Shown: piece by piece, positions 1,603 through 50,937 of the stretch
How the letters are laid out: every line of letters begins with the position of its first letter
How positions within the stretch are numbered: position 1 is the first letter of the stretch
Assembly (NCBI GenBank): GCA_050253415.1
Contig: JBFWJC010000002.1
Span: 384,001 to 448,000, forward strand
Reading direction: 5' to 3'
Source: Pedobacter sp.
GTDB taxonomy: Bacteria; Desulfobacterota; Desulfuromonadia; Desulfuromonadales; Syntrophotaleaceae
DNA length: 64,000 nucleotides
Translations under genes and position numbers: made by a program
Notes under the pieces: model-generated
The model's input: only the letters and a program-made list of their open reading frames with translations
Told to the model about the DNA's origin: nothing
Databases searched by the model: none

Positions 1603-2003
1603 TCGATAGGGGCCTGCTCGGTTCGCAAAAAGGGTTTTCCATCGTGACCGCCCTGTTCATCCTGCTGGTGCTGGCGGTGCTGGGTGGCTTCATGGTAACC
1701 ATGAGTGGCGTGCAGAGTCGTACCTCCCTGTGGGCGTTGCAGGGGGCGCGGGCCTATCACGCAGCCCGCAGCGGGCTGGAGTGGGGTGTTTTTCAGGATC
1801 TCTCCGCCGGTGCCTGCGTGTCTGATACCTTTACCGTTGATGGTTTTACCGTGAGCGTGACCTGCAGCGAGGAGTCGTTTACCGAGGGCGGACAGAATTA
1901 CAAGGTCTATAGCTTGACCTCCTTGGCGCAAACCGGAATTTATGGCAGCAACGATTATATCTCAAGGCAGTTGCGGGCCAGGATTACGGGAGCTACGCCA
2001 TGA
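1599..2003 (+). CDS. mshP: MSHA biogenesis protein MshP-like (PilX-type N-terminus)
   Basis: Start reassigned to ATG 1599 overlapping the mshO stop; QKG|FSIVTALFILLVL and ARAYHAARSGLEWG motifs. Confidence 0.8.
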   Translation: MIDRGLLGSQKGFSIVTALFILLVLAVLGGFMVTMSGVQSRTSLWALQGARAYHAARSGLEWGVFQDLSAGACVSDTFTVDGFTVSVTCSEESFTEGGQNYKVYSLTSLAQTGIYGSNDYISRQLRARITGATP

Positions 2004-5000
2004 TAGATAATAGTTTTTCAAAAGATGCAAGGTGGGTCCCAACTCTACTGGCGCTGGCAGTCATGTTCCTTGTTATCGGATCAGGTATTTCCCCGCCTTG
2101 TGTTTATGCCGCTGGCTGCTCCCCCCATATCGGGGATATGACCATCAATGAGGTTTATGAACTGGGCAGTGAGTCGTGGGTGGAGGTGCGCCTTCTGGAT
2201 ACCTCGTTGTCTTCGACTGTTTATAATCAGTGGTACATCCAGGTGTGTGCGAAAGGGGGATCCTGCGGTACCTATTCCATTTCCAGTGGGGAGGTTTTAT
2301 TGCCGGATAGTTATCCATCCTGGATCACGCTGGATGTAAGCTCGCAGGATGTCAATCTCCAGTCCAATGGCGGTATGGAGGTTCTTCTGTTTGATGAAAA
2401 CGGTGATGTGATCGATTATCTGTCGGTCAATAACCTTTATTCGCAACAGCCGGATTGCTCAAGTTTTCTGTATCCCACCGCGACTGGCAAACTCTTGTCC
2501 AGCCTGAAAGGCATTTACCGTTCCCCCGACGGAACCGGCGATTGGGAGGAGCTTGGTTCGCCAGGTGCTACGGGGGAACCCACAACCGGTTATGATAACG
2601 ACACACAAGATGCCTTCCCTGTTGTTCCCGTTGCCGAATGGCGTTTTGACGAGTGTGGGTATGACGGCACTTTGGCAATGGACAGTCAGGGATCCCATGA
2701 TGCTGTCGCTTATAATGCAGTAACCAGCGAAGCGGACGCTGTGGTGGGCCGGTCTGCGGTTTTAAGCTCTTCGAATCAAAAGTTTATCGCCAACAGCGAT
2801 GTGCCGATGACATCTCTGTGGACCGTCAGTGTCTGGTTCCAATGGCCGTATTCGACCAGCGAGGGTTCGCGCTATCATATTCTGGGGGCGATGGCCGGCG
2901 GCGGCGATATCATGTGGATAGATGACCATACTGACCGGTGGGGCATCTGGGATGGAAAGACATCTTACGATGGAACTTATCAGTTCTCTTCATTGTCCGA
3001 AGGCTGGCACCATATGGTTGTGGTGGGTACCAGGGAGTGGATTGGAGGGAAATGGTGGGGGTATTGGGTCGAACGTAGCGACCTTTACATCGATGGGAGC
3101 CGAGTTGATTCAATTAATGCCAGAAGTAATGGTAATTTGCATTATATCGGTACTTCGTATGATACCTATCTCGGAAACCAGGGGTTCCGCGCGTCGCTGG
3201 ATGAATTTCTGGTTTTTGATGAGGCTTTGGAGAGTGATGAAATTCGGGATCTCTATGATCTGCAAGTAGCTGGTCGCAACCTGGACGGGACTTATCGGTC
3301 GGATATCCTATGTGGGGCAGGCATCGATCATTTCGAGATCGTGCATGACGGCTCGGCTTTGACCTGTGCTCCGGAAACAGTGACGGTGCGGGCCTGTGCC
3401 GATGACGCTGATCCCTGCACCCTGTATACCGATGATGTGCAGATTACTTTGTCGCCTTCCGTTTGGATCAATGGAAATAGTCAAACCCTTGTCAACGGTA
3501 GCGATACTTTTCGCTTGCGGCATACCACCGCGGAGACCGTGACCCTCTCCGTTGTCGGGAATCCGGCCGCGGATCAGCCTGTGCAGTGTGTGGATGGCAG
3601 TAGCGGGGATTCCTGTAGCATGGTGTTCCATGAATCCGGATTTTTGTTCGATGTGCCCGATATGCAAGCCTGCACCGATAAGGAAAGCATCACCTTTTCC
3701 GCTGTTCGCGCCGATGCCACGGCTGAACATTGTATCGGTGACGACAGTTTTGCGGATACGACCCGCAATGTGGCTTTCTGGTCCACTTACCAGGAGCCGG
3801 ATACGGGGACCCTGGCTTTGGTGGTAAACGATACGGTGATCGGCGGGGCGGATCCCGGCACCGGGGTGTCTTTGACTTTCGATTCGGCAGCCAACAGTAC
3901 GGTCAAGGTCCGATACTCTGATGCGGGACGGTTGCTGTTGTCTGCCCGCTTTTCCGGCAGTGGCGAGGAAGCCGGTCTGGTGATGGAGGGTAGTGACAGT
4001 TTTGTTGTGGCGCCAGATCATCTGCGGGTGCGTGCCAGCACCGATGGGACAACCTTGTTGGATAATACCACCTCTACGGGTGATCCGTTTTGGCCGGCGG
4101 GAGGGGCTTTTGAAGTCGAGGTCGCCGGAGTATGCGCCGATGGTACGGTGACTCCAAACTTTGCTGCGTCGACCATTATTGCTGCCACGGCGGGAAATCC
4201 TGCGGCCGGGACTTTCACCGGTGGGCCGTTTGCCGCAGGCGATTACATCGATGGGGTCGTTAGTGATAGCGCCACCTACAGTGAGGTCGGTACCGTTACC
4301 CTGCAAGCGGAAGCAGCCAACTATCTCGGCAGTGACATCGATGTGAGCGGCAGTGTGACCATCGGTCGTTTTACACCGCATCACTTCAGCACCTCTGTTA
4401 ACAGCCCCTCGTTTGCCACGGGTTGCAGTGCCGGTGGGTTTACCTATGTCGGACAGGCTTTTAATTATGCCGATGTCCCGGTAATTACGGTCACCGCCAA
4501 AAATAAACAGGGAGACACGACGGCCAACTATACCGGCGAATGGTGGAAGATTACCGGTGCTACCCTTACGGGGAAAAACTACAGCGCTGCGGAAGGTTCC
4601 CTCGATGTCTCCGGCATCCCGACCTCGGATCCGGTGGTCTCAGATATCGGTGGTGGTTTGGGTCTGCTGACTTTTGACTCCGGCAGTGGCCTGAGCTTTG
4701 TACGCAGTGATCCGGTGGCGCCTTTCGATGCGGATATTAGTTTGGCCATTAATATATTCGATGCGGATGGCATAGCTGCCGATGCCAACCCGGTATCCTT
4801 CGGTGAGGCGACTGCCGGAAATGGTATCGCCTTCGATGCCGGCAAGGACATGCGCTGGGGGCGCCTTGTTATGAAAAATGCTTACGGCTCGGAGTTGCTG
4901 GCCCTGTCCATGCCTCTGCGCACCGAGTATTTTGACGGCACCGTTTTTGTGCAGAATCTGCAGGATGCTTGTACGGCGTTGGCACTTACTGACCTGGTGT

Positions 5001-5293
5001 TGAACAACGGCACAACAATTGTCCCCGGCGATCAACCCATCGCCGTCGGTAGCGGAAGCAGTCAGGCCACCCTGGGCAATATCCCCATGCTGACCGGCGA
5101 TGCAGGTCTGATTTTCAGTGCTCCCGGCTCTGACGGTTATGTTCAGATGCGGGTCGATCTGTCGCTGCTGCCCTGGTTGCATTACGATTGGGACGGGGAT
5201 GGCAGTCACGATGACGATCCGACTGCGCGTGCCAGCTTCGGTCTGTACAAGGGACGGCCCGGGATGATCTATATGCGGGAGAGCTTCCGCTAA
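2000..5293 (+). CDS. mshQ: MshQ-like large pilus-associated adhesin (LamG/ConA-like domain plus conserved MshQ-type C-terminus)
   Basis: Signal peptide; LamG-like stretch (WRFDE..WHHMVVV..LYIDG..F.ASLDEF); C-terminal GRLVMKNAYGSEL..PWLHYDW..ASFGLYKG..IYMRE; last gene of msh operon. Confidence 0.75.
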   Translation: MIDNSFSKDARWVPTLLALAVMFLVIGSGISPPCVYAAGCSPHIGDMTINEVYELGSESWVEVRLLDTSLSSTVYNQWYIQVCAKGGSCGTYSISSGEVLLPDSYPSWITLDVSSQDVNLQSNGGMEVLLFDENGDVIDYLSVNNLYSQQPDCSSFLYPTATGKLLSSLKGIYRSPDGTGDWEELGSPGATGEPTTGYDNDTQDAFPVVPVAEWRFDECGYDGTLAMDSQGSHDAVAYNAVTSEADAVVGRSAVLSSSNQKFIANSDVPMTSLWTVSVWFQWPYSTSEGSRYHILGAMAGGGDIMWIDDHTDRWGIWDGKTSYDGTYQFSSLSEGWHHMVVVGTREWIGGKWWGYWVERSDLYIDGSRVDSINARSNGNLHYIGTSYDTYLGNQGFRASLDEFLVFDEALESDEIRDLYDLQVAGRNLDGTYRSDILCGAGIDHFEIVHDGSALTCAPETVTVRACADDADPCTLYTDDVQITLSPSVWINGNSQTLVNGSDTFRLRHTTAETVTLSVVGNPAADQPVQCVDGSSGDSCSMVFHESGFLFDVPDMQACTDKESITFSAVRADATAEHCIGDDSFADTTRNVAFWSTYQEPDTGTLALVVNDTVIGGADPGTGVSLTFDSAANSTVKVRYSDAGRLLLSARFSGSGEEAGLVMEGSDSFVVAPDHLRVRASTDGTTLLDNTTSTGDPFWPAGGAFEVEVAGVCADGTVTPNFAASTIIAATAGNPAAGTFTGGPFAAGDYIDGVVSDSATYSEVGTVTLQAEAANYLGSDIDVSGSVTIGRFTPHHFSTSVNSPSFATGCSAGGFTYVGQAFNYADVPVITVTAKNKQGDTTANYTGEWWKITGATLTGKNYSAAEGSLDVSGIPTSDPVVSDIGGGLGLLTFDSGSGLSFVRSDPVAPFDADISLAINIFDADGIAADANPVSFGEATAGNGIAFDAGKDMRWGRLVMKNAYGSELLALSMPLRTEYFDGTVFVQNLQDACTALALTDLVLNNGTTIVPGDQPIAVGSGSSQATLGNIPMLTGDAGLIFSAPGSDGYVQMRVDLSLLPWLHYDWDGDGSHDDDPTARASFGLYKGRPGMIYMRESFR

Positions 5294-32184: not shown

Positions 32185-34251
32185 TCACTCCTGAAGTTTT
32201 TCCACCTTGCACATGAAACAGCGATTGGACGGAGTGGCGGTGACCGGGTTACGGCAGGCGTCGTCGGTCAGGTTGTTGAGACTCAGCTGTGCATCGGCTT
32301 CCCCCCAGCCCCAGGCGATGAGGATGGAGCCGACGTGCACCACTTCCGAAATACGGGCTTTCATGCGGATGGAGCCGTTGGGGGTTGAAACCTGCAGCCT
32401 ATTGCCATCGTCAATGCCGAGTCTGGTTGCATCGTCGGGGTGGATATCGATGAATCCCTCCGGTTCCTGCTGCAGCAAGGATGGAATCTGATGGAACTGA
32501 CTGTGGGTATAGCGGTTGCTGCGTTCGCCGCTGATGCCGATAAAAGGGTATTCCGAGGCGCGGTCGGCAAAGCTCAGCGGGTTGCCGCCAAAGCCCTTCC
32601 CGAAGGGTACTGGTGGGAAGCCGTGTTCAGCGAGTCGGTTGGAGGAGAATTCCACCTTGCCGGAGGGGGTGCGCAATCCTTGTCGGCGAAATTTCTCGAA
32701 GGCCACTGCACCGGTGCGCACACCTTGGGGGGCTTCGCGCAGTTGTTCCACGGTGACGCCAGTCGGCTCCAACTGATAGTTGATGGCTTGTTCAACGGTT
32801 CGCCAGGGGAAGTCATCCTTCAGTCCGAGTCTGTGACCCAGCTCAAAGGTGATTTTCCAGTCCGGCCAGCTGTCTGCGATGCAGTCGATAACCTGGTCTT
32901 GCAAGACAATCAGGTTGTTGCGTAAAGCCGCCCGGTTGAGCTGGGTTTTCTCGAAACACCCCGCAGCGGGCAACACGATGTCGGCCAGCCGGGTGGTTTG
33001 GGTGGCAAACAGGTCGATGGCCACCAGACAATCGAGTTTTTGCAGCGCTTTGCGTACCCGATGAGCATCTGTCATGGTGACTGCCGGGTTGCCGGACTGT
33101 ACGATCAGCATGTGGATGGGGTAGGGGCGCTCCTCCAAAATGGCATCGATCAGGGCGGATTGGGCGTGCAGCCCCCAGTTGGGGTGGAAGGTGCTGAACA
33201 AGGGATATGCGTGGGTTACTGGAGGTGTATCGGTTTTTAATCGCTCGGTAAGTTGAATGTTGCGCGCCGGCACCGGTTGTGGAATCAGGTCGCCGCCTGG
33301 CCGGTCGAGATTGCCGGTCAAGGCGCGCAGCATGCACACCGCGCGGGTGGCGTCGAATACCTGCAGCTGCATGTCGAGACCGTTGCCGTCGATGATGCAG
33401 GCCGGTGAGGTCGTTGCGTACAGGCGTGCGGTTCTGCGGATGATGGCAGGATCCAGCCAGAGATCGGCGGCGACTTTTTCGGGAGCAAAGGCCTGCGCGG
33501 TACGCCGCAAATCGTCCAAGCCGGTGCACCACTTGCTCACGAAGTCCTGGTCGTACAGCCCCTCCTCGATGATTGTGTGGATCATGGCCATGGCCAGCAG
33601 TCCATCGTGGCCCGATTTGATTTGCAGCCAGATGTCGGCCATTTTTGCCAGCGGCGTGCGTATCGGGTCGATGACAATCAGGCGGGCTCCCTGTTGCCGC
33701 GCTTGCAGGATGGCTTCAAAGGCCGGAGGACAGGTGTTCTGGTCGTTTTTCCCCCAGACCATGATGCAGCGCGATTCCCTCGCCTGGGGGATGGTCATGG
33801 CGCCGTAGGTGAACGTGTGTGCCATTTCGCGCGCGACATGGCACACGGAGCCGTTGCCGATGGCGTTGGGAGAGCCGAAGGCATGCATCAGGCGGGTGGC
33901 GTAATCCCAGGGGGCGCCCCAGTCGGCGGCCATGCCGCGCAACCAGGCGACGGATTGCGCCCCATGACCCTGTTTAAAATGTTGCATGCGTTCGGCGACG
34001 GCGTCGAGGGCTTCGTCCCAGCTGGCTTCACGAAAAATAAGCTGGCCGCGGCGGCGGTCCCTGATCAGCGGTGTGGTCAAACGTTTGGGGGAGTAGGTAA
34101 TGTCAACGGCCGCCTGCAGTTTGGGACACAGCAGTTGTTGCTCCGGTGGCAAAGAGGATTTGCGCCGCGCAGCGGCCAGTCTGCCGTCGCGGATATCGGC
34201 TTCCACGGAGCAGCAGGCGGAACACAGACGGCAGACGGTAGCCTTTTTCAT
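32185..34251 (-). CDS. Cytoplasmic Mo/W-bisPGD oxidoreductase, acetylene-hydratase-like branch, with N-terminal 4Fe-4S motif
   Basis: CRLCSACC..CPK Fe-S motif, RLTTPL, SWDEALD, likely metal-ligating Cys in GSVCH, LTGNLDRPGG, ADIVLPA, TPSGKVEF, IHPDDA; no Tat signal; AAGGAGG ribosome site. Confidence 0.9.
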   Translation of the reverse strand: MKKATVCRLCSACCSVEADIRDGRLAAARRKSSLPPEQQLLCPKLQAAVDITYSPKRLTTPLIRDRRRGQLIFREASWDEALDAVAERMQHFKQGHGAQSVAWLRGMAADWGAPWDYATRLMHAFGSPNAIGNGSVCHVAREMAHTFTYGAMTIPQARESRCIMVWGKNDQNTCPPAFEAILQARQQGARLIVIDPIRTPLAKMADIWLQIKSGHDGLLAMAMIHTIIEEGLYDQDFVSKWCTGLDDLRRTAQAFAPEKVAADLWLDPAIIRRTARLYATTSPACIIDGNGLDMQLQVFDATRAVCMLRALTGNLDRPGGDLIPQPVPARNIQLTERLKTDTPPVTHAYPLFSTFHPNWGLHAQSALIDAILEERPYPIHMLIVQSGNPAVTMTDAHRVRKALQKLDCLVAIDLFATQTTRLADIVLPAAGCFEKTQLNRAALRNNLIVLQDQVIDCIADSWPDWKITFELGHRLGLKDDFPWRTVEQAINYQLEPTGVTVEQLREAPQGVRTGAVAFEKFRRQGLRTPSGKVEFSSNRLAEHGFPPVPFGKGFGGNPLSFADRASEYPFIGISGERSNRYTHSQFHQIPSLLQQEPEGFIDIHPDDATRLGIDDGNRLQVSTPNGSIRMKARISEVVHVGSILIAWGWGEADAQLSLNNLTDDACRNPVTATPSNRCFMCKVEKLQE

Positions 34252-34280
34252 GGCAGCCTCCTTGTTTTTCCTTCCGGCGG

Positions 34281-35219
34281 TTAGCGGTGGGCTTTAACGT
34301 AACAACTGCGGATCAGTTCAAAATGATTGGCATGGGTGCGGATTTTCCACCAGACATGCCCTTGCCGCTCGATCTGCCAGGCGGTTCGCAGGGCCTGCTG
34401 GTCTCCGCGCAGCAGGGCGGTAATATTGTCCAGTCCTCGCCCAGCAAACGGTTGGTTGGTTTTGCCGCCAAGCCAGTGGTGTTCTTCGGCCGCCTCCAGC
34501 GACCAGGAAAACGGGTCGGATACCAGGGCCTGGGCATCATTGCGGCGTGCGACGCGGTCCATTTCGGTCAAGTGCTGCAACGGACGGGGGAGTTTGTCCA
34601 CCAGATTGAGCGAGGCCAGGCAGGTAAAAATGCCGGAACGAAACGGCAGCGCCTGGGCATCCCCGACAATGAATTCGATGTTCTCGGAATGCCAGTCTTC
34701 AGGCAGTTTCAGCGTGACCTCGCGATTCAGCAGTCCCTCTTCCGGCAGCGATATGATTTTGCTACGCCGGGTTAATAGTTCCCGGGCTGCGCGGATAAAG
34801 GATTCGGATTTGTCGATCCCGATGACGAAGTCGCACTTGTTCTGCATTTCAAAGGCGAACCGTCCGACAGCCGCGCCGATATCAAGGGCCGGGCCGTTGA
34901 CGGGGGCGATCAGATCTGCCCACTGGCGGTATGCGTCAGAAGCCTCAGGATCGCCCAGCACATCGCCGTAATGGCTCCACAGGTAGGATGCCAGGGCTCT
35001 GGGGGATTCGTAACCGATGCCCTGTTGTCGTGGAGTCGCGGAAGGGGTATCCAGAAAGGCCAGCCCATCGCGGACCGGATACAGGCCACCGCACCGATCG
35101 CAGCGCAGCGCACCTTCCAGAATGTCATCCCGATCTTGCCGGTGGACGGTAGCGTCCAACGGGATTTCTTCGGGCAGGCACGCCGGGCAGACGAGCATCG
35201 TCAGTAGACGGCTTTTCAT
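34281..35219 (-). CDS. SAM-dependent methyltransferase of the OvoA C-terminal (mercaptohistidine N-methyltransferase) type with N-terminal Trm112-like Zn ribbon
   Basis: Start reassigned to MKSRLL (35219, AAGGA site). LVCPAC..LRCDRC..YPVRDG, then YES...SYLWSHYG, ALDIGAAVGRFAFE, GIDKS..FI, PEEG.L, GDAQAL, NLVDKL..P, PFSW, WLGG, IR....F. Confidence 0.8.
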   Translation of the reverse strand: MKSRLLTMLVCPACLPEEIPLDATVHRQDRDDILEGALRCDRCGGLYPVRDGLAFLDTPSATPRQQGIGYESPRALASYLWSHYGDVLGDPEASDAYRQWADLIAPVNGPALDIGAAVGRFAFEMQNKCDFVIGIDKSESFIRAARELLTRRSKIISLPEEGLLNREVTLKLPEDWHSENIEFIVGDAQALPFRSGIFTCLASLNLVDKLPRPLQHLTEMDRVARRNDAQALVSDPFSWSLEAAEEHHWLGGKTNQPFAGRGLDNITALLRGDQQALRTAWQIERQGHVWWKIRTHANHFELIRSCYVKAHR

Positions 35220-35230
35220 GGGGAGTTCCT

Positions 35231-35599
35231 TTAAGGTAGTAGCCGGAACAGGATGGCGGAAACCAGCAGCAGCAGCCCCGCAACAAACAGAGTGTGCGTC
35301 ATGTAGGCCAGCCTGGTCGGTACCGCCTTGTAATCCTGCGCGATGACCCGCGGTGGCAACTGGTTGAAATTCTCCAGTTCCTGCTGCGATATGCCCAGCG
35401 GTACGGCGTGGTCCCTGATCTGTTCGTGCCGCTCTTTGGCCGCCAGCAGCAGATGTTTCTGAACATGACCGCACAGCATCAGGTAGGTGATACCAAGCGC
35501 CAGGCAAAGCCAGAAAAGATCCTGGTGACCGATGCCGTACAAAGCGATAGTGGCCAACGTGTAGACAATGATGCCGGTTCTGCGCAGCCAGACAGACAT
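35231..35599 (-). CDS. Hypothetical membrane protein (3 TM), first gene of the operon
   Basis: Hydrophobic N- and C-terminal helices; GAGGTG site; ends 11 bp before the methyltransferase start. Confidence 0.7.
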   Translation of the reverse strand: MSVWLRRTGIIVYTLATIALYGIGHQDLFWLCLALGITYLMLCGHVQKHLLLAAKERHEQIRDHAVPLGISQQELENFNQLPPRVIAQDYKAVPTRLAYMTHTLFVAGLLLLVSAILFRLLP

Positions 35600-45201: not shown

Positions 45202-45291
45202 TTGGTCCCTGGTCATTGGTCATTCGTAAACGGCCAAGCCTACACGCCGAAAAACCGATGGCAAATGACAATTGACAAATGACAAAGGACT
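45202..45291. repeat. Inverted arrays of 7-bp units between murA and hisG
   Basis: Left arm tggtccc tggtcat tggtcat; right arm aatgaca attgaca aatgaca aaggact. Confidence 0.7.
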
Positions 45292-45298
45292 ACAATTT

Positions 45299-45958
45299 AT
45301 GAGCGACTACATAACATTTGCCCTGCCCAAGGGCCGTATCATGCAGGACTCCATGGAGTTGTTTGCCAGAATTGGCATTACCTGCCCGGAGATGAGCGGC
45401 GACAGCCGCAAGCTGGTATTCGAAAACCCTGAAACCAAATTCCGTTTCATGGCGGTGCGGGCCACTGACGTGCCGACTTACGTCGAATACGGTTGTGCAG
45501 ACCTTGGGGTGGTAGGCAAGGATACCTTGCTGGAGCAGGGCAAGGACCTTTATGAACCGCTTGATCTGAAATTCGGTTATTGCCGCATGGTCGTGGCCGA
45601 GCCCGGCGCATTGCTGCGTGATGAGGATCCGGCGAGCTGGTCCAATATCCGCGTGGCTACCAAATATCCTAATATTACCGAACGCTATTTTGCCGAGCGC
45701 GGCGTCCAGGTCGAGCTGATAAAGCTTTACGGTTCCATAGAGTTGGCCCCCCTGGTCGGTTTGGCCGAGCGTATTGTCGATCTGGTATCGACCGGCGCCA
45801 CCATGCGTGAAAACGGTCTGGTGGAAGTTGAAACCATCTCCGAAATCACCAGTCGTCTGATTGTCAATCGTGCCAGTCTCAAGACCAAGCATCAGCGCAT
45901 TACCCGTATTATTCAGGACCTGGAACGGGTATTGGCCGAGGATGCTGCAAAAGACTGA
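45299..45958 (+). CDS. hisG: ATP phosphoribosyltransferase, short form (HisZ-dependent)
   Basis: ALPKGR, DVPTYVEYG, VATKYP, GSIELAP and DLVSTG motifs; no C-terminal regulatory domain. Confidence 0.96.
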   Translation: MSDYITFALPKGRIMQDSMELFARIGITCPEMSGDSRKLVFENPETKFRFMAVRATDVPTYVEYGCADLGVVGKDTLLEQGKDLYEPLDLKFGYCRMVVAEPGALLRDEDPASWSNIRVATKYPNITERYFAERGVQVELIKLYGSIELAPLVGLAERIVDLVSTGATMRENGLVEVETISEITSRLIVNRASLKTKHQRITRIIQDLERVLAEDAAKD

Positions 45959-45969
45959 GGAGTAAGACG

Positions 45970-47265
45970 ATGATGCGATTGCTGTCCTTTGACGATCCCT
46001 GCTTCGAAGAGGCCCTTGGCGCTATCGTTATGCGTGGAGAAACACCTCCCGAAGGTGTTGAAGAAACGGTTGAAGCGATCCTTCAGGCGGTGCGCCTGCG
46101 GGGTGACCAGGCCTTGCTTGAATACACGGCTCAGTTCGATAATTTGACCCTGACAGCCGCACAGCTGCAGGTAACGCCGACCGAGATCGAAGCGGCGCTG
46201 GCGGCTGTCGATGCGGAATCGATGGCGGCCCTGCAGTTGGCGGCCGATCGCATCGCCGCCTTCCATCGCCGGCAAAAGACTCAGACTTGGCTGACCACCG
46301 ACGAACAGGATGTCATGCTGGGTCAGATGGTGCAGCCTCTGGAACGGGTAGGCATCTATGTCCCAGGCGGCAAGGCCAGTTACCCCTCGTCGGTGTTGAT
46401 GAATGCCATTCCCGCCAAAGTGGCCGGCGTGGAAGAAGTGGTAATGGTGGTGCCCATGCCGCGTGGGGAAGTGAATCCCCATGTGCTTGCGGCGGCTCAT
46501 CTGGCCGGTGTGGATCGCATTTTCAAGATTGGCGGCGCCCAGGCTGTGGCGGCTCTGGCCTACGGTACCGATACCATCCCGCGTGTGGACAAGATCACCG
46601 GTCCGGGCAACATTTATGTTGCCACCGCCAAGAAAATGGTATTTGGCCAGGTCGATATCGACATGATCGCCGGTCCGAGTGAGATTCTGGTGGTCAATGA
46701 CGGCACTGGCAACCCGGACCACATCGCTGTCGACCTGCTGTCCCAGGCCGAGCACGATGAACTGGCCGCTTCCATCTTCGTGACTACCGATGCGGAATTC
46801 GGCCGTCGCGTACAATCGGCAGTGGAAGAGCAACTGGTGACCCTGCAGCGGGCCGCCATTGCACGCCGCTCCATCGACGCGTTCGGTGCCATCCTGGTGG
46901 CCCGGGATCTTGACCAGGCCGTTGCGCTCAGCAACCGCATTGCTCCGGAGCACCTGGAACTGGCGGTAAACGATCCCTTCGCTTTGTTGCCGAAGATCCG
47001 CCATGCCGGCGCCATTTTTATGGGGCATCATTGTCCGGAAGCGGCCGGGGATTACCTGGCCGGGCCCAACCACACCCTGCCCACCGGAGGCACGGCACGT
47101 TTCTTCTCGCCGCTGGGGGTGGACGATTTCGTCAAGAAATCAAGCATCATTTCTTTTTCCCGGGCGGGCCTGGAACGGTTGGGTCCCTCGATCGTGCATC
47201 TGGCTGGATTGGAAGGCCTGGAGGCCCATGGGCGCTCCGTTTCCATCCGCCTGAAAGACAGCTGA
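45970..47265 (+). CDS. hisD: Histidinol dehydrogenase
   Basis: GIYVPGG, DMIAGPSE, SQAEHD, APEHL and GPNHTLPT motifs. Confidence 0.98.
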   Translation: MMRLLSFDDPCFEEALGAIVMRGETPPEGVEETVEAILQAVRLRGDQALLEYTAQFDNLTLTAAQLQVTPTEIEAALAAVDAESMAALQLAADRIAAFHRRQKTQTWLTTDEQDVMLGQMVQPLERVGIYVPGGKASYPSSVLMNAIPAKVAGVEEVVMVVPMPRGEVNPHVLAAAHLAGVDRIFKIGGAQAVAALAYGTDTIPRVDKITGPGNIYVATAKKMVFGQVDIDMIAGPSEILVVNDGTGNPDHIAVDLLSQAEHDELAASIFVTTDAEFGRRVQSAVEEQLVTLQRAAIARRSIDAFGAILVARDLDQAVALSNRIAPEHLELAVNDPFALLPKIRHAGAIFMGHHCPEAAGDYLAGPNHTLPTGGTARFFSPLGVDDFVKKSSIISFSRAGLERLGPSIVHLAGLEGLEAHGRSVSIRLKDS

Positions 47266-47393
47266 TCGTAGCGGTCCGGCTACCTTAGGGCAGCCGATCA
47301 TCTTGCAAACTGGTTCCGGCCTGGAACGGTGGAAAACAGCCTGTCCGGGCGGAAACAATCAATGTCAACCATCTGCTGGTAAAGGGGTTTGCC

Positions 47394-47981
47394 ATGTCCC
47401 GTAGCGCCATCATCGATCGACAGACCCAGGAGACCCAAATCCATCTGAGCTTGACCCTTGACGGTCGTGGCGAAGGCAGTATCGTCACGCAGGTGCCCTT
47501 TATGAGCCACATGCTCACCCTGCTCAGCCGGCACGGGTTTTTCGACCTGACGATCAGGGCCGAGGGCGACATCGAGGTCGACGGCCACCATTCGGTGGAA
47601 GATCTCGGCATCTGCCTGGGTCAGGCTTTTGCCAAAGCGCTTGGCGATAAGCAGGGTATTCGCCGTTACGGTTCCGCGACGGTTCCCATGGACGAGACCC
47701 TGGCGTCGGTACATCTCGATTTTTCCGGCCGGTCGTGCCTGGTCTTCAATATGGATATGCCCAAGGCCAAGGTCGGGACTTTCGATGTGGAACTGGTCGA
47801 AGAATTTTTTACTGCATTTTGCAACCACGCCGCCGCCAATGTGCATGTTAACCTGGCCTACGGCAGCAACCTGCATCACATGATTGAAGGCGTTTTTAAA
47901 GCCTTCGCTCGGGCATTGGATGAGGCAACCGGCCTCGATCCTCGCATCGAAGGGGTGCTGTCCACCAAAGGAAAGCTGTAA
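47394..47981 (+). CDS. hisB: Imidazoleglycerol-phosphate dehydratase
   Basis: [19 protein letters not shown] and STKG motifs. Confidence 0.97.
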
Positions 47982-47984
47982 CAG

Positions 47985-48608
47985 ATGATCGTTATTGTTG
48001 ATTACGGGATGGGCAATCTGCGCAGCGTGCAGAAAGGCTTTGAAAAAGTCGGTTTCGATGCCCGGGTGACCGATGATCCGGCCGTCGTGGCACAGGCCGA
48101 TAAGCTGGTATTGCCCGGTGTCGGGGCGTTTCGCGACTGCATGGAGCAACTTGAGCAAGGTGGTTTCGTCGAGCCGATTCTGCGGCATGTCGAGGCCGGC
48201 CGGCCGTTTCTTGGTATCTGCCTCGGCTTGCAATTGCTGTTCACCGAAAGCGAAGAATTTGGACATCACAAGGGGCTGAATATTATCCCCGGGCGGGTGG
48301 TTCGTTTCCAGGGTGATATGCATTGCCAAGGTGAGTTGCTCAAGGTCCCGCATATGGGCTGGAACCAGATTGATATCCGCAAGCCGGCACCTATTTTCCA
48401 GGGATTGGAAGGCGGCGAGTCGGTTTATTTCGTGCATTCCTATTATGTTGTGCCCGAGGATGAATCGGTGGTGGCTGCCACGGCCGATTACGGTCGGCCC
48501 TTCTGTGCTGCCGTATGGCGGGACAATGTCATGGCGACCCAGTTTCACCCTGAGAAGAGCCAGCGGGTGGGCTTGCGTATCCTCAAGAATTTCGGAGAGT
48601 TAAAATGA
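47985..48608 (+). CDS. hisH: IGP synthase glutaminase subunit
   Basis: DYGMGNL, LPGVGAF, GICLG, PHMGWN and QFHPE motifs. Confidence 0.97.
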
Positions 48609-49336
48609 TTGTTATCCCCGCCATCGATTTGAAGGAAGGCCGCTGTGTTCGTCTTGAACAGGGCCTGATGGAAAAGGACACGGTTTACAACGACGACCCC
48701 GGCGCCCAGGCCCGCAGCTGGCAGGAACAGGGCGGAGAATTGTTGCATATCGTTGATCTCGACGGTGCGTTTGCTGGCGTGCCGCGCAATCGTGAGGCCA
48801 TTCGCGCCATAGTTGAGGCCGTTTCCATTCCTACCGAGCTGGGCGGCGGCATCCGCGATCTGCCGACCATCGAGGCGTATCTGGAGCTTGGTATCGACCG
48901 GGTGATTCTTGGTACGGTGGCCAAGGAAAACCCGCAACTGGTGCGTGAAGCCTGCCAGCGGTTTCCCGGTCATATCGTAGTCGGCATCGACGCCCGCGAT
49001 GGGCTGGTGGCGGTACGCGGCTGGGCCGATGTGACGGAAAAACTGGCCACCGAACTGGCCAAGGAAATGGAAGGCTTCGGCGTCGAGGCGATCATCTATA
49101 CCGACATCGCGCGCGACGGCATGATGGGTGGCCCGAATCTCGAAGCCACCCGCGCGCTGGCCGAGGCGATCACGGTCCCGGTTATCGCATCCGGCGGCGT
49201 TTCCTGTCTGGACGATATCGCCAGCCTCATGACCATCGAAAAGTACGGCGTGACCGGCGTGATTACAGGTAAGGCGCTGTATACCGGCAGCCTCGATCTG
49301 CGTACGGCCGTGGCGCTGACCAAAGGCAAAGCCTGA
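48605..49336 (+). CDS. hisA: ProFAR isomerase
   Basis: [26 protein letters not shown] and ASGGV motifs. Confidence 0.97.
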
Positions 49337-49339
49337 TAG

Positions 49340-49401
49340 CGCGGAGCAAACTTACTTGTTTCATCAGGAAGTGTTCCGCGACTTCTGCGGTCTGCGCAGT
49401 G
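49340..49401. repeat. Decayed remnant of the 9-mer-unit inverted repeat
   Basis: ttccgcgacttctgcggtctgcgcagtg resembles the right outer arm at 728-754; short partner cgcggag at 49340. Confidence 0.4.
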
Positions 49402-49498
49402 AAAACCCCGGTTCCATTGTTTTTGGTTGTGTTCGAATTAATTAACCCGCAGGCCTTGTAATCGGGTCGCGGCGTTCTTATCTTGTGAAGGACGAGCC

Positions 49499-50266
49499 AT
49501 GCTGACGAAACGTATTATCCCCTGTCTGGATGTCAAAGACGGCCGGGTGGTCAAAGGGGTTCAGTTCCTGGAGTTGCGCGATGCCGGTGATCCGGTGGAG
49601 GCCGCCGAGGCTTACGATGCCCAGGGCGCCGATGAACTGACATTTCTGGATATCACCGCCTCCAGCGACAAACGCAATATCATCCTTGATGTCGTAGCGC
49701 GCACCGCAGAGCGGGTATTCATGCCCCTCACCGTCGGCGGCGGCATCCGCAAGATCGATGATATCCGCAACCTGCTCAATGCGGGAGCCGACAAGGTATC
49801 CATCAATACCGAGGCGGTGAATAACCCTGAATTCGTGAAGGAAGCGGCCGAACGTTTCGGTTCCCAGTGCATCGTGGTCGCGATCGATGCGCGCCGGGTG
49901 CCCGATTCCGATCCGCAGCGATGGGAAGTGTATATCCACGGAGGTCGCACCCCGACCGGCATAGACGCCATGGAATGGGCGGTGCGCATGGAAGCCTATG
50001 GCGCCGGTGAAATCCTGTTGACCTCCATGGACAAAGACGGCACCAAGGATGGCTACGACATCCCCTTGACCCGTACCATCAGCGACCTGGTCGGCATTCC
50101 GGTGATCGCTTCCGGTGGCGTCGGAAACCTGGAGCACATTTATCAGGGCTTGACCGAGGGGGGGGCCAGTGCTGCCCTGGCTGCCAGCATCTTTCACTTC
50201 CGCGAGTATACGATTCAGGAGTGCAAGGAATATTTGCAGCAGCGCGGCGTGCCGGCGCGTCTGTAA
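49499..50266 (+). CDS. hisF: IGP synthase cyclase subunit
   Basis: [34 protein letters not shown] and ALAASIFH motifs. Confidence 0.98.
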
Positions 50267-50295
50267 CCGGACCGGCCAGGCAGGAGACACAGACC

Positions 50296-50937
50296 ATGAC
50301 CGAATTAACCAGCTTGACATACGACGCTGCCGGATTGATTCCCGCGGTGGTGCGCTGCGCCCGTAGCGGCGAGGTGCTGATGCTCTCGCAACTGAACGCC
50401 GAAGCCGTACAACAGACTCTGGCCAGCGGACTTTTGTATCGTTATTCCCGTTCCAAAGGCACCCTGGTGGCGCCGGATGCCGATGCGCCCCAGCAGGTCA
50501 GGGACATGCGTATGAGCTGTGCCGGGGATTGCCTGCTGGTGTCGGTGGAGCAGGGCGGCTCTGTACGCAACTGTTTCCAGACCGTGCTTTTCCAACAGGA
50601 AGGCGCGACGGCCGCCTGTTCTGACGATATTCTGGAGCAGGTTTACCAGGTGGTGCTGCAGCGGCGCGACAACCCCTCGCAGAAGTCCTACGTGGCTTCT
50701 TTGTTTGCCAAAGGGCTGGATAAAATCCTCGGCAAGATTGGCGAGGAAGCTACTGAGACCGCCGTCGCCGGCAAAGGCGGCAATAAGGATGACGTGGTTT
50801 ACGAAACCGCCGATCTGTTTTTCCATGTGCTGGTGCTGCTCGGCTATTACGATATCCCGCCGGAGCGCATTTACCAGGAATTACGCCGCCGGTTCGGATT
50901 GTCCGGCATCGAAGAAAAAGCCAGTCGCAAGGCGTGA
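50296..50937 (+). CDS. hisE: Phosphoribosyl-ATP pyrophosphatase fused to a degenerate HisI-like domain
   Basis: Intact [23 protein letters not shown]-terminal GLIPAVV..GEVLML..YSRS resembles HisI but lacks its catalytic motifs. Confidence 0.88.

Follow-up and report, generated by a model that had tools for sequence, protein, structure and literature searches.

OvoA's C-terminal domain (OvoC), OvoM and OvsM are S-adenosylmethionine (SAM)-dependent N-pi-methyltransferases of 5-thiohistidine and 5-selenohistidine. To our knowledge, iron enzymes that depend on O2 are the only known source of ovothiol and its relatives, whereas two anaerobic routes to ergothioneine have been described. We know of a single precedent for molybdenum/tungsten (Mo/W)-dependent formation of a C-S bond on an imidazole, the metallopterin-dependent synthase of ergothioneine (MES). 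The accessible part of the article on MES from Caldithrix abyssi describes the sulfurization of an imidazole by a member of the superfamily that concerns us here, and its authors proposed there that other orphan Mo enzymes may sulfurize likewise (Beliaeva and Seebeck, 2022; PMC9516567). The accessible text of an October 2026 paper from a leading group in the field still presents thio- and seleno-imidazoles as products of non-heme-iron synthases (PMC13674229). In this study, we analyzed a 64,000-nucleotide stretch of a Desulfobacterota genome (GCA_050253415.1, contig JBFWJC010000002.1, positions 384,001 to 448,000; hereafter, the window), in which a methyltransferase (MT) gene is followed on the same strand by the gene for a Mo/W enzyme:

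34281..35219, minus strand: P0001, 312-amino acid (aa) SAM-dependent MT with an N-terminal Trm112-type zinc ribbon and a catalytic domain like those of OvoM, OvsM and the OvoA C-terminus
32185..34251, minus strand: P0002, 688-aa cytoplasmic Mo/W bis-pyranopterin guanine dinucleotide (bisPGD) enzyme ("type A"), assigned from profiles, alignments and a tree

The reading that we favor, with roughly even confidence and from genomic evidence, is that the pair would form a self-contained two-gene module that makes, without O2, an ovothiol-type compound: an N-methylated thiohistidine or possibly selenohistidine.

The methyltransferase and the OvoA C-terminal domain

A first-pass annotation made from the DNA letters had assigned METHYLTRANSFERASE (P0001) to the methyltransferase type found at the C-terminus of OvoA, and profile searches bore this out. 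In Pfam, aa 2-52 match a Trm112 zinc ribbon, and the MT domains recognized are generic class I ones. The top NCBIfam match was TIGR04345 (ovoA_Cterm; E 4.2e-25, 88.7 bits), the "putative 4-mercaptohistidine N1-methyltransferase" of the OvoA C-terminus, which was the first of 12 matches, ahead by about 15 orders of magnitude. The two regions of the protein are encoded as follows:

35064..35216, minus strand: Trm112-like zinc ribbon, aa 2-52 (PF03966, E 1e-09), with Cys11, Cys14, Cys40 and Cys43
34389..35012, minus strand: catalytic stretch matching ovoA_Cterm, aa 70-277 (TIGR04345 model positions 1-213 of 242)

The four cysteines of the zinc ribbon are invariant across 36 aligned family members. 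A sequence search of the PDB returned as its three top matches OvsM (1.3e-17), OvoM (4.8e-11) and OvoA (4.1e-10), the first two being a 5-selenohistidine and a 5-thiohistidine N-methyltransferase, respectively. The fold gave the same answer. An AlphaFold2 model built from the 36 family members (pLDDT 91.1, pTM 0.90) retrieved with Foldseek ten top PDB chains that were all OvoA, OvsM or OvoM (E 1.6e-19 to 2.4e-18), with TM scores of 0.79-0.85 normalized on the target and root-mean-square deviations of 2.5-4.0 for the single-domain chains among them. The next match was nine orders weaker (3.8e-10), and the histidine N-methyltransferases CARNMT1 and METTL9 appeared among the later ones.

The closest sequence and fold matches of the MT are therefore the OvoA C-terminus, OvoM and OvsM (TIGR04345; PDB 8khq, 9bxl-n, 9bxh-k), with which it shares the class I MT core and extra N- and C-terminal motifs, including P236-W239. 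All the motifs that the first-pass annotation had listed for the MT are present in P0001, with one spacing corrected: five residues, not four, separate IR from F. When 35 family MTs were aligned with six OvoA C-termini from genomes of the same phylum, 25 positions conserved in at least 95% of the family were identical in all six OvoA sequences. Those outside the SAM motifs include Y70, Y79, H83, E161-G162, N205, P236, W239 and W249-L-G-G. In a tree rooted on OvoA, the family forms a single clade with 100% support. Two features set it apart from its relatives: the N-terminal Trm112 zinc ribbon, which is absent in OvoM and OvsM, and its partners, because the MT is never fused to, or encoded beside, a non-heme-iron sulfoxide or selenoxide synthase and is instead associated with a Mo/W enzyme or a B12-binding radical-SAM system.

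Co-conservation with the Mo/W enzyme and absence of the O2-dependent route

The pairing of the two genes extends well beyond the window. An orthologue of P0002 (57-90% identity) lies directly downstream of the MT, on the same strand, in 19 of 25 genome loci; two of the other six end at a contig edge just after the MT. Four loci have another context, and one has none. The spacing between the two genes at type A loci ranges from 20 to 200 bp, and nothing beyond the MT and Mo genes is conserved in their flanks. In an even set of 301 genomes from the phylum, the MT was found in 28 and a P0002 orthologue (E <= 1e-150) in 12, and the MT adjoined it in 12 of 12. The co-conservation that the first-pass annotation had put forward as a check was thus borne out in both samples. 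Homologues of the pair, 76 and 75% identical, occur in Syntrophotalea carbinolica DSM 2380. An apparent natural MT-Mo fusion (P0274, 550 aa) was discarded as a frameshift read-through in which the C-terminal part of the MT stands in another frame, ahead of the Mo start.

The O2-dependent route is largely missing from these genomes. The absence of a sulfoxide synthase, originally claimed for the window, holds for the whole genome to which it belongs (100% complete), where neither PF03781 (the FGE-sulfatase domain of OvoA and EgtB) nor TIGR04344 had a match. MES is encoded beside the histidine trimethylase EgtD; this partner is absent here, as PF10017 had no match in the window's genome nor in any of the 12 type A genomes. 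Across the 301 genomes of this largely anaerobic phylum, OvoA was found in 8 and EgtD in 27; one of the 12 type A genomes encodes OvoA, and 25 of the 28 MT genomes lack it. The full-length OvoA proteins (sulfoxide synthase plus MT, 701-742 aa) are encoded in genomes G071, G171, G140, G260, G107, G150, G165 and G239 (loci L065-L070), and in two OvoA genomes a Trm112-fused MT is also kept as a stand-alone gene, adjacent to one for aconitase B.

The Mo/W enzyme and its relatives

The predictions that P0002 is a Mo/W bisPGD enzyme and cytoplasmic were both upheld. The protein matches PF04879, PF00384 and PF01568, the Fe4S4, molybdopterin and MGD-binding domains, and begins at its Fe4S4 motif (Cys7), leaving no space for a twin-arginine signal. 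Its metal-binding features map to:

34090..34245, minus strand: N-terminal Fe4S4 (FS0) domain, aa 3-54 (PF04879), with cluster residues Cys7, Cys10, Cys14 and Cys42
33841..33843, minus strand: codon of Cys137, the predicted Mo/W ligand; in alignments, it shares its column with Cys141 of acetylene hydratase and the ligand Cys of the MES modules

Alignments of the Fe4S4 domain revealed an additional conserved Cys13, a conserved Lys44, and Ser11 at the position of Asp13 in acetylene hydratase (AH). The ligand column is Cys in 18 of 18 type A, 3 of 3 type A' (described below), 12 of 12 MES and 29 of 29 representative sequences. A search of 1.84 billion cluster representatives retrieved a single close cluster, P0124 (50% identity, 785 bits), after which scores fall to 495 bits and identities to 36-39%. 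Every NCBIfam score of P0002 is far under the respective cut-off, and the window's genome encodes one other bisPGD enzyme only. At one type A locus, a second, distant bisPGD paralogue (L020:9941-11926; 32% identity) follows the pair, past a TspO/MBR gene.

The top PDB match of P0002 was AH of Syntrophotalea acetylenica (2e7z, E 9e-81), followed by PsrA/PhsA and formate dehydrogenases. AH and P0002 are alike in length, domain order, Fe4S4 cluster, Cys ligand and cytoplasmic location, and AH Lys48 is kept as Lys44. At 28.8% identity, however, P0002 does not qualify as an orthologue of 2e7z, and the catalytic Asp13 of AH, next to the second cluster Cys, is Ser11 in 18 of 18 type A sequences. The hydrophobic-ring positions of AH are occupied in P0002 by Ala, His, a gap and Asp. 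G333, a genome from the family to which the window's genome belongs, encodes both a protein matching 2e7z at 1553 bits and the MT-Mo pair (55 and 63% identity). P0002 is therefore an AH paralogue rather than an AH, and we rejected the latter assignment on the Asp13-to-Ser replacement and on this coexistence. That genome carries two AH genes in all (L100, L098/L099), 31% identical to P0002, one of them being the 1553-bit match.

PsrA/PhsA (PDB 2vpw, NCBIfam NF012032) is the second PDB match (1e-65) and the top NCBIfam match of P0002 (295.8 bits, against a cut-off of 694). The two share a Cys-x-x-x-Arg-Glu ligand loop, and PsrA offers a precedent for Mo-S chemistry. P0002 differs in being cytoplasmic, without a Tat signal and with no PsrB or PsrC gene adjacent, and we found no ferredoxin or membrane-anchor gene conserved in type A flanks. 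Assignment as a formate dehydrogenase alpha subunit (TIGR01591) was discarded at 288.8 bits, against a cut-off of 666.

The comparison with MES is of most consequence for function. Both enzymes are cytoplasmic bisPGD proteins with an N-terminal Fe4S4 cluster and a Cys metal ligand, encoded beside a histidine-directed methyltransferase in strict anaerobes, and Cys7, Cys10, Cys14, Cys42 and Cys137 of P0002 align with MES cysteines. [quoted passage not shown] The order of reactions would differ as well: methylation precedes sulfurization in the MES pathway, at the alpha-amine, whereas the MT partner of P0002 would act afterwards, on a ring nitrogen. We rejected MES as one of the nearest relatives of P0002, as the 150 best 50%-cluster representatives included no Mo-desulfurase fusion; one of them (P0262, 1137 aa) is a fusion of Mo and FNR-like domains. 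Mo enzymes of the MES type fused to a cysteine desulfurase (1127-1169 aa) adjoin EgtD in 14 of 16 EgtD loci (L071-L086; 16 genomes); this known way of making ergothioneine anaerobically seems to be common in the phylum.

Alternative partners of the same methyltransferase

The 28 MT genomes comprise 12 of type A, 3 of a second type with a Mo enzyme (type A'), 8 with a radical-SAM system (type B) and 5 without a partner. Because related genomes are not independent, these figures are to be read as a pattern, not as a test of statistics. For the 16 that lack a P0002 orthologue, we took 14 MT loci. In type A' (L047-L049; MT 38-43% identical), a 735-741-aa Mo enzyme is encoded 9-23 bp downstream of the MT (L047:5762-8945, L048:5752-8927, L049:4049-7225). 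It shares 48-52% identity with the Mo modules of the MES fusions and is their sister group in an IQ-TREE phylogeny (100 SH-aLRT). It matches MES residues at the AH-numbered columns 113, 142, 179 and 293 and, as in MES, the Lys at column 48 is missing. The A' enzymes have no desulfurase domain and their genomes no EgtD, and the A' pair is arguably the clearest candidate for an anaerobic thiohistidine or ovothiol-type pair. At L047, genes for an HdrD-like CCG/4Fe-4S protein and an M19 dipeptidase stand beside it. We rejected a single origin of the MT-associated Mo enzymes, because A and A' are not sisters in the tree.

Type B loci (six of the 14 taken, plus L026, L027, L029 and L030) encode, in order, a 675-750-aa B12-binding radical-SAM protein with a weak RRE-like tail, a small ORF, the MT and an M19 dipeptidase. 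A SufS/EgtE-like class V PLP enzyme is encoded in five of them. The small ORF, located between the radical-SAM gene and the MT in all nine loci that cover the interval (L030 is cut there), specifies a peptide with 4-9 CH[AS]P repeats; no such ORF was present in the nine A' and partner-less loci scanned. These repeat ORFs are unannotated (L026:5679-5852, L027:5683-5856, L044:9021-9188 and L045:9023-9241, both on the minus strand, and L046, L052, L053 and L054), and their products begin with M-x-K-I-x-K-V-E-K-K-x-S-x-A-A-S before the 4-9 repeats. From its gene content, with a dipeptidase and a PLP enzyme resembling C-S lyases, type B looks like a peptide-templated Cys-His system that, by analogy, would formally parallel OvoA/OvoB. 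At E <= 1e-100, the type B radical-SAM protein has orthologues in 8 of the 301 genomes, each of which carries the MT and none of which is type A or A'; in two of them, both fragmented assemblies, the radical-SAM and MT genes are on different short contigs. We did not find this protein in the window's genome.

In the tree, the MTs of type A lie as a derived clade (96) within those of type B, and it is from this nesting that we conclude that the MT has been constant while its partner was exchanged. The simplest account would be that the partners all provide the MT with a thio(seleno)histidine to methylate. The idea put forward in the first-pass annotation gains support from this comparison, because one MT has three interchangeable partners, two of which point to sulfur-imidazole chemistry.

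Locus layout and surroundings

The three tightly spaced minus-strand genes originally described, each with a ribosome-binding site, were found as stated, with gaps of 11 bp (P0003 to MT) and 29 bp (MT to P0002). The sites read AAGGAGG for P0002 (5-nt spacer to the ATG), AGGAA for the MT and GAGGTG for P0003. P0001 is 312 aa long from the ATG chosen in the first-pass annotation, and the mechanical ORF extends to a TTG at 35507. The remaining elements of the operon are:

35231..35599, minus strand: P0003, a hydrophobic protein of 122 aa whose ORF lies 11 bp upstream of the MT gene; no Pfam or NCBIfam match
34257..34263, minus strand: AAGGAGG ribosome-binding site of the P0002 gene, inside the 29-bp gap after the MT stop codon

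The label "small membrane protein" given to P0003 is based on three hydrophobic stretches judged by eye, with no family match in Pfam or NCBIfam. Its gene precedes the MT only at L006 (83% identity) and in a genome of the same genus (G309; 64%), and no counterpart was found in G333 or at other MT loci. P0003 is a genus-level accessory outside the conserved MT-Mo pair, and a third conserved gene in the module was rejected on this ground and because no other flank gene recurs at type A loci. No Rfam element or riboswitch was found near the operon, and promoter and terminator scans there gave hits at chance level only.

The rest of the window encodes housekeeping functions (topA, dprA, rho, prfA, prmC, the his operon, dnaG, rpoD). 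Among these, hisG, hisD, hisA and hisIE (45272-50934) lie on the opposite strand about 10 kb from the pair, with rho, thyX, prfA, prmC and aroA in between; their proximity is probably a coincidence, and we did not count it as linkage. At the start of the window, a gene (2000-5290) for a 1097-aa protein with DUF6701 and a laminin-G-like domain follows a pair of genes (29-490 and 796-1599) whose products have N-terminal methylation motifs resembling those of type IV pilins.

Proposed pathway and competing explanations

In the pathway that we propose, a cytoplasmic Mo/W center ligated by Cys137 would bear a terminal sulfido or persulfido ligand, loaded with sulfur from sulfide, polysulfide or a cellular (housekeeping) persulfide. 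We suggest these sources because no desulfurase is fused or linked to the enzyme. From the center, the sulfur would move onto a carbon of the imidazole ring of free histidine, in the way that MES sulfurizes trimethylhistidine, and, were sulfide the donor, electrons would exit via Lys44 and the Fe4S4 cluster. The OvoM-like MT would next methylate a ring nitrogen using SAM. From the genomic evidence we infer the substrate, the formation of a C-S bond by the P0002 clade, the ring carbon that is sulfurized (C5 or C2), the donor of the sulfur and the sequence of the steps. P0002 retains Lys44, which MES and A' have lost, and has a Cys-x-x-x-Arg-Glu loop like that of PsrA; the two features would fit an enzyme that handles inorganic sulfur and exports electrons.

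Several observations weigh against this proposal, and they begin with the MT. At 88.7 bits, P0001 misses the curated equivalog cut-off of TIGR04345 (170 bits); its family sits on a long branch from OvoA, and 20 family-conserved positions differ from the OvoA consensus. On these three grounds, its substrate may differ from that of OvoA. The score under the cut-off is also why we regard the MT as a separate sister family to the OvoA C-terminus, OvoM and OvsM, and not as their equivalog, although one predicted to be OvoM-like in working. As to distribution, 5 of the 28 MT genomes have no partner for the MT (two of these five encode OvoA elsewhere), and the type A genome G165 encodes OvoA as well. 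Type A pairs have no conserved neighbor that encodes a desulfurase, a rhodanese or a sulfur carrier, and type B as a thiohistidine route is itself candidate chemistry, read from gene content. P0002 shares only 30-32% identity with MES modules, about as much as with AH (28.8%) and no more than with many uncharacterized relatives, and differs from MES and A' at active-site columns (His138 for Tyr; Arg141 for Phe, Tyr or Leu; Asp288 for Met; Lys44 for Leu, Val, Ile or Met). The phylogeny suggested in the first-pass annotation (IQ-TREE, 63 sequences) did resolve the placement of P0002, but outside the MES clade: type A belongs to a separate 35-row clade of uncharacterized enzymes (97 SH-aLRT), and MES and A' form a clade of their own (100).

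The sister clade of type A adds to these objections. Its members, 46-53% identical, come from low-GC organisms (contigs L102-L110, GC 32-36%), and no MT was encoded beside them in nine metagenome loci with flanks of up to 4 kb on each side. Six of these loci were annotated, five with usable context. Three of the five carry a TAXI-TRAP transporter (NMT1_3 binding protein and fused DctM), one of which has an IclR regulator and an aminotransferase as well; a fourth (L109) has genes for octopine/opine-dehydrogenase-like, enolase-superfamily and peptide/opine-type binding proteins; and the fifth has only a PdaC-domain gene. Remoter P0002 paralogues also adjoin TRAP or ferredoxin genes. This context suggests the uptake and transformation of a small imported solute, with the sister-clade enzyme as an uncharacterized cytoplasmic Mo enzyme that would act on it; the wider clade may thus handle small imported solutes and need not insert sulfur. 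Of the O2-free thiohistidine pathway originally proposed, the MT family, the co-conservation and the missing OvoA, EgtB and EgtD stand; P0002 itself lies outside the MES clade. The pathway is still the best available interpretation, resting as it does on three independent genomic lines, and the enzyme clade is new.

The retention of Lys44 and of the Cys-x-x-x-Arg-Glu loop, as in redox-active relatives and PsrA, can also be read without any insertion of sulfur. The Mo/W enzyme could hydroxylate (with water-derived oxygen), hydrate or reduce an imidazole or another small heterocycle, whose product the MT would then N-methylate. Such chemistry would agree with the TRAP transporters and catabolic-looking genes of the sister clade and with the lack of a linked sulfur-donor gene, and most characterized members of the dimethyl sulfoxide reductase family transfer oxygen or electrons, as the accessible part of the MES article has it (PMC9516567). 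We nevertheless consider it rather unlikely, because elsewhere the same MT pairs with a MES-type enzyme or a Cys-His peptide system, because its nearest relatives all act on thio- or seleno-imidazoles and because, in the accessible part of a study of OvsM, plain histidine was not methylated by that enzyme (PMC11030361). The same relatives raise the question of selenium. OvsM is the top PDB sequence match of the MT (1.3e-17, vs. 4.8e-11 for OvoM), and the window's genome encodes the selenophosphate synthetase SelD, with a score above the cut-off, so that the pair could instead make an ovoselenol-like N-methyl-selenohistidine, with the Mo/W enzyme transferring Se and not S. Fold scores do not tell OvsM from OvoM or OvoA, however; no senB or senC was seen beside the pair, although no search was aimed at selenosugar genes; the sole precedent, MES, transfers S; and sulfide is far more abundant than Se in the habitats of these organisms. 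Together these points make the selenium version improbable.

The Trm112 ribbon opens a different line of argument, as such domains are usually found together with methyltransferases that act on proteins, tRNA or rRNA (NF038101 and PF03966 matches). With CARNMT1 and METTL9 as the next structural neighbors and type B clusters encoding a peptide substrate and a dipeptidase, the MT might methylate a histidine in a peptide or protein (METTL9/CARNMT1-like, or peptide-bound, as may be the case in type B), the Mo enzyme acting on that macromolecular or dipeptide substrate or being loosely coupled. We give this little credence. The buried active site of this Mo family usually takes small molecules, and the A' and partner-less loci scanned have no CH.P-repeat ORF, the type A loci, with their gaps of 20-200 bp, having been left out of that scan. 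Least probable of all, in our judgment very much so, is the detoxification or volatilization of a metalloid or chalcogen oxyanion that the Mo enzyme would reduce and the MT methylate in the manner of ArsM or TehB. ArrA and YnfE/F are among the distant family matches of P0002, and the MT has weak NCBIfam matches to ArsM- and UbiE-type methyltransferases (E 0.002 to 6e-05). These last are about 20 orders of magnitude weaker than ovoA_Cterm, the A', B and OvoA associations of the MT are unrelated to metalloids, and the flanks contain no ars, ter or efflux genes.

Significance

The openly accessible literature on ovothiol, 5-thiohistidine and ovoselenol, which was the scope of our search (subscription-only papers and supplements lay outside it), contained no description of the MT-Mo pairing, and we found no anaerobic route to ovothiol-type compounds in the literature searched. 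Within it, "ovothiol" and "acetylene hydratase" co-occur only in the MES paper (PMC9516567), and the molybdenum/tungsten passages seen of the S. carbinolica genome paper do not mention the pair. If the proposed thiohistidine pathway is correct, the pair would provide a directly testable anaerobic route to a methyl-thiohistidine and would broaden the C-S bond-forming range of Mo/W enzymes beyond MES. The module is small, a cultured carrier exists (S. carbinolica DSM 2380), and the mutually exclusive partner sets amount to three comparator systems for experiments.

A wider view of the same data, which we advance tentatively and with less confidence than the pathway itself, is that Desulfobacterota would have at least three evolutionarily independent O2-free feeds for one ovothiol-type MT: the MES-clade Mo/W enzyme, the B12-binding radical-SAM protein with its (Cys-His-Ala-Pro)n peptide, and P0002. 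The last would represent a second, MES-independent clade that forms C-S or C-Se bonds without a dedicated desulfurase, taking its sulfur from sulfide or polysulfide and releasing electrons via the Fe4S4 cluster, and methyl-thiohistidines would then belong to the ordinary metabolism of anaerobes that reduce sulfur and metals. The pathway, if true, suggests that redox thiols are at work in sulfidic, anoxic habitats, where "antioxidant" is not their obvious role.

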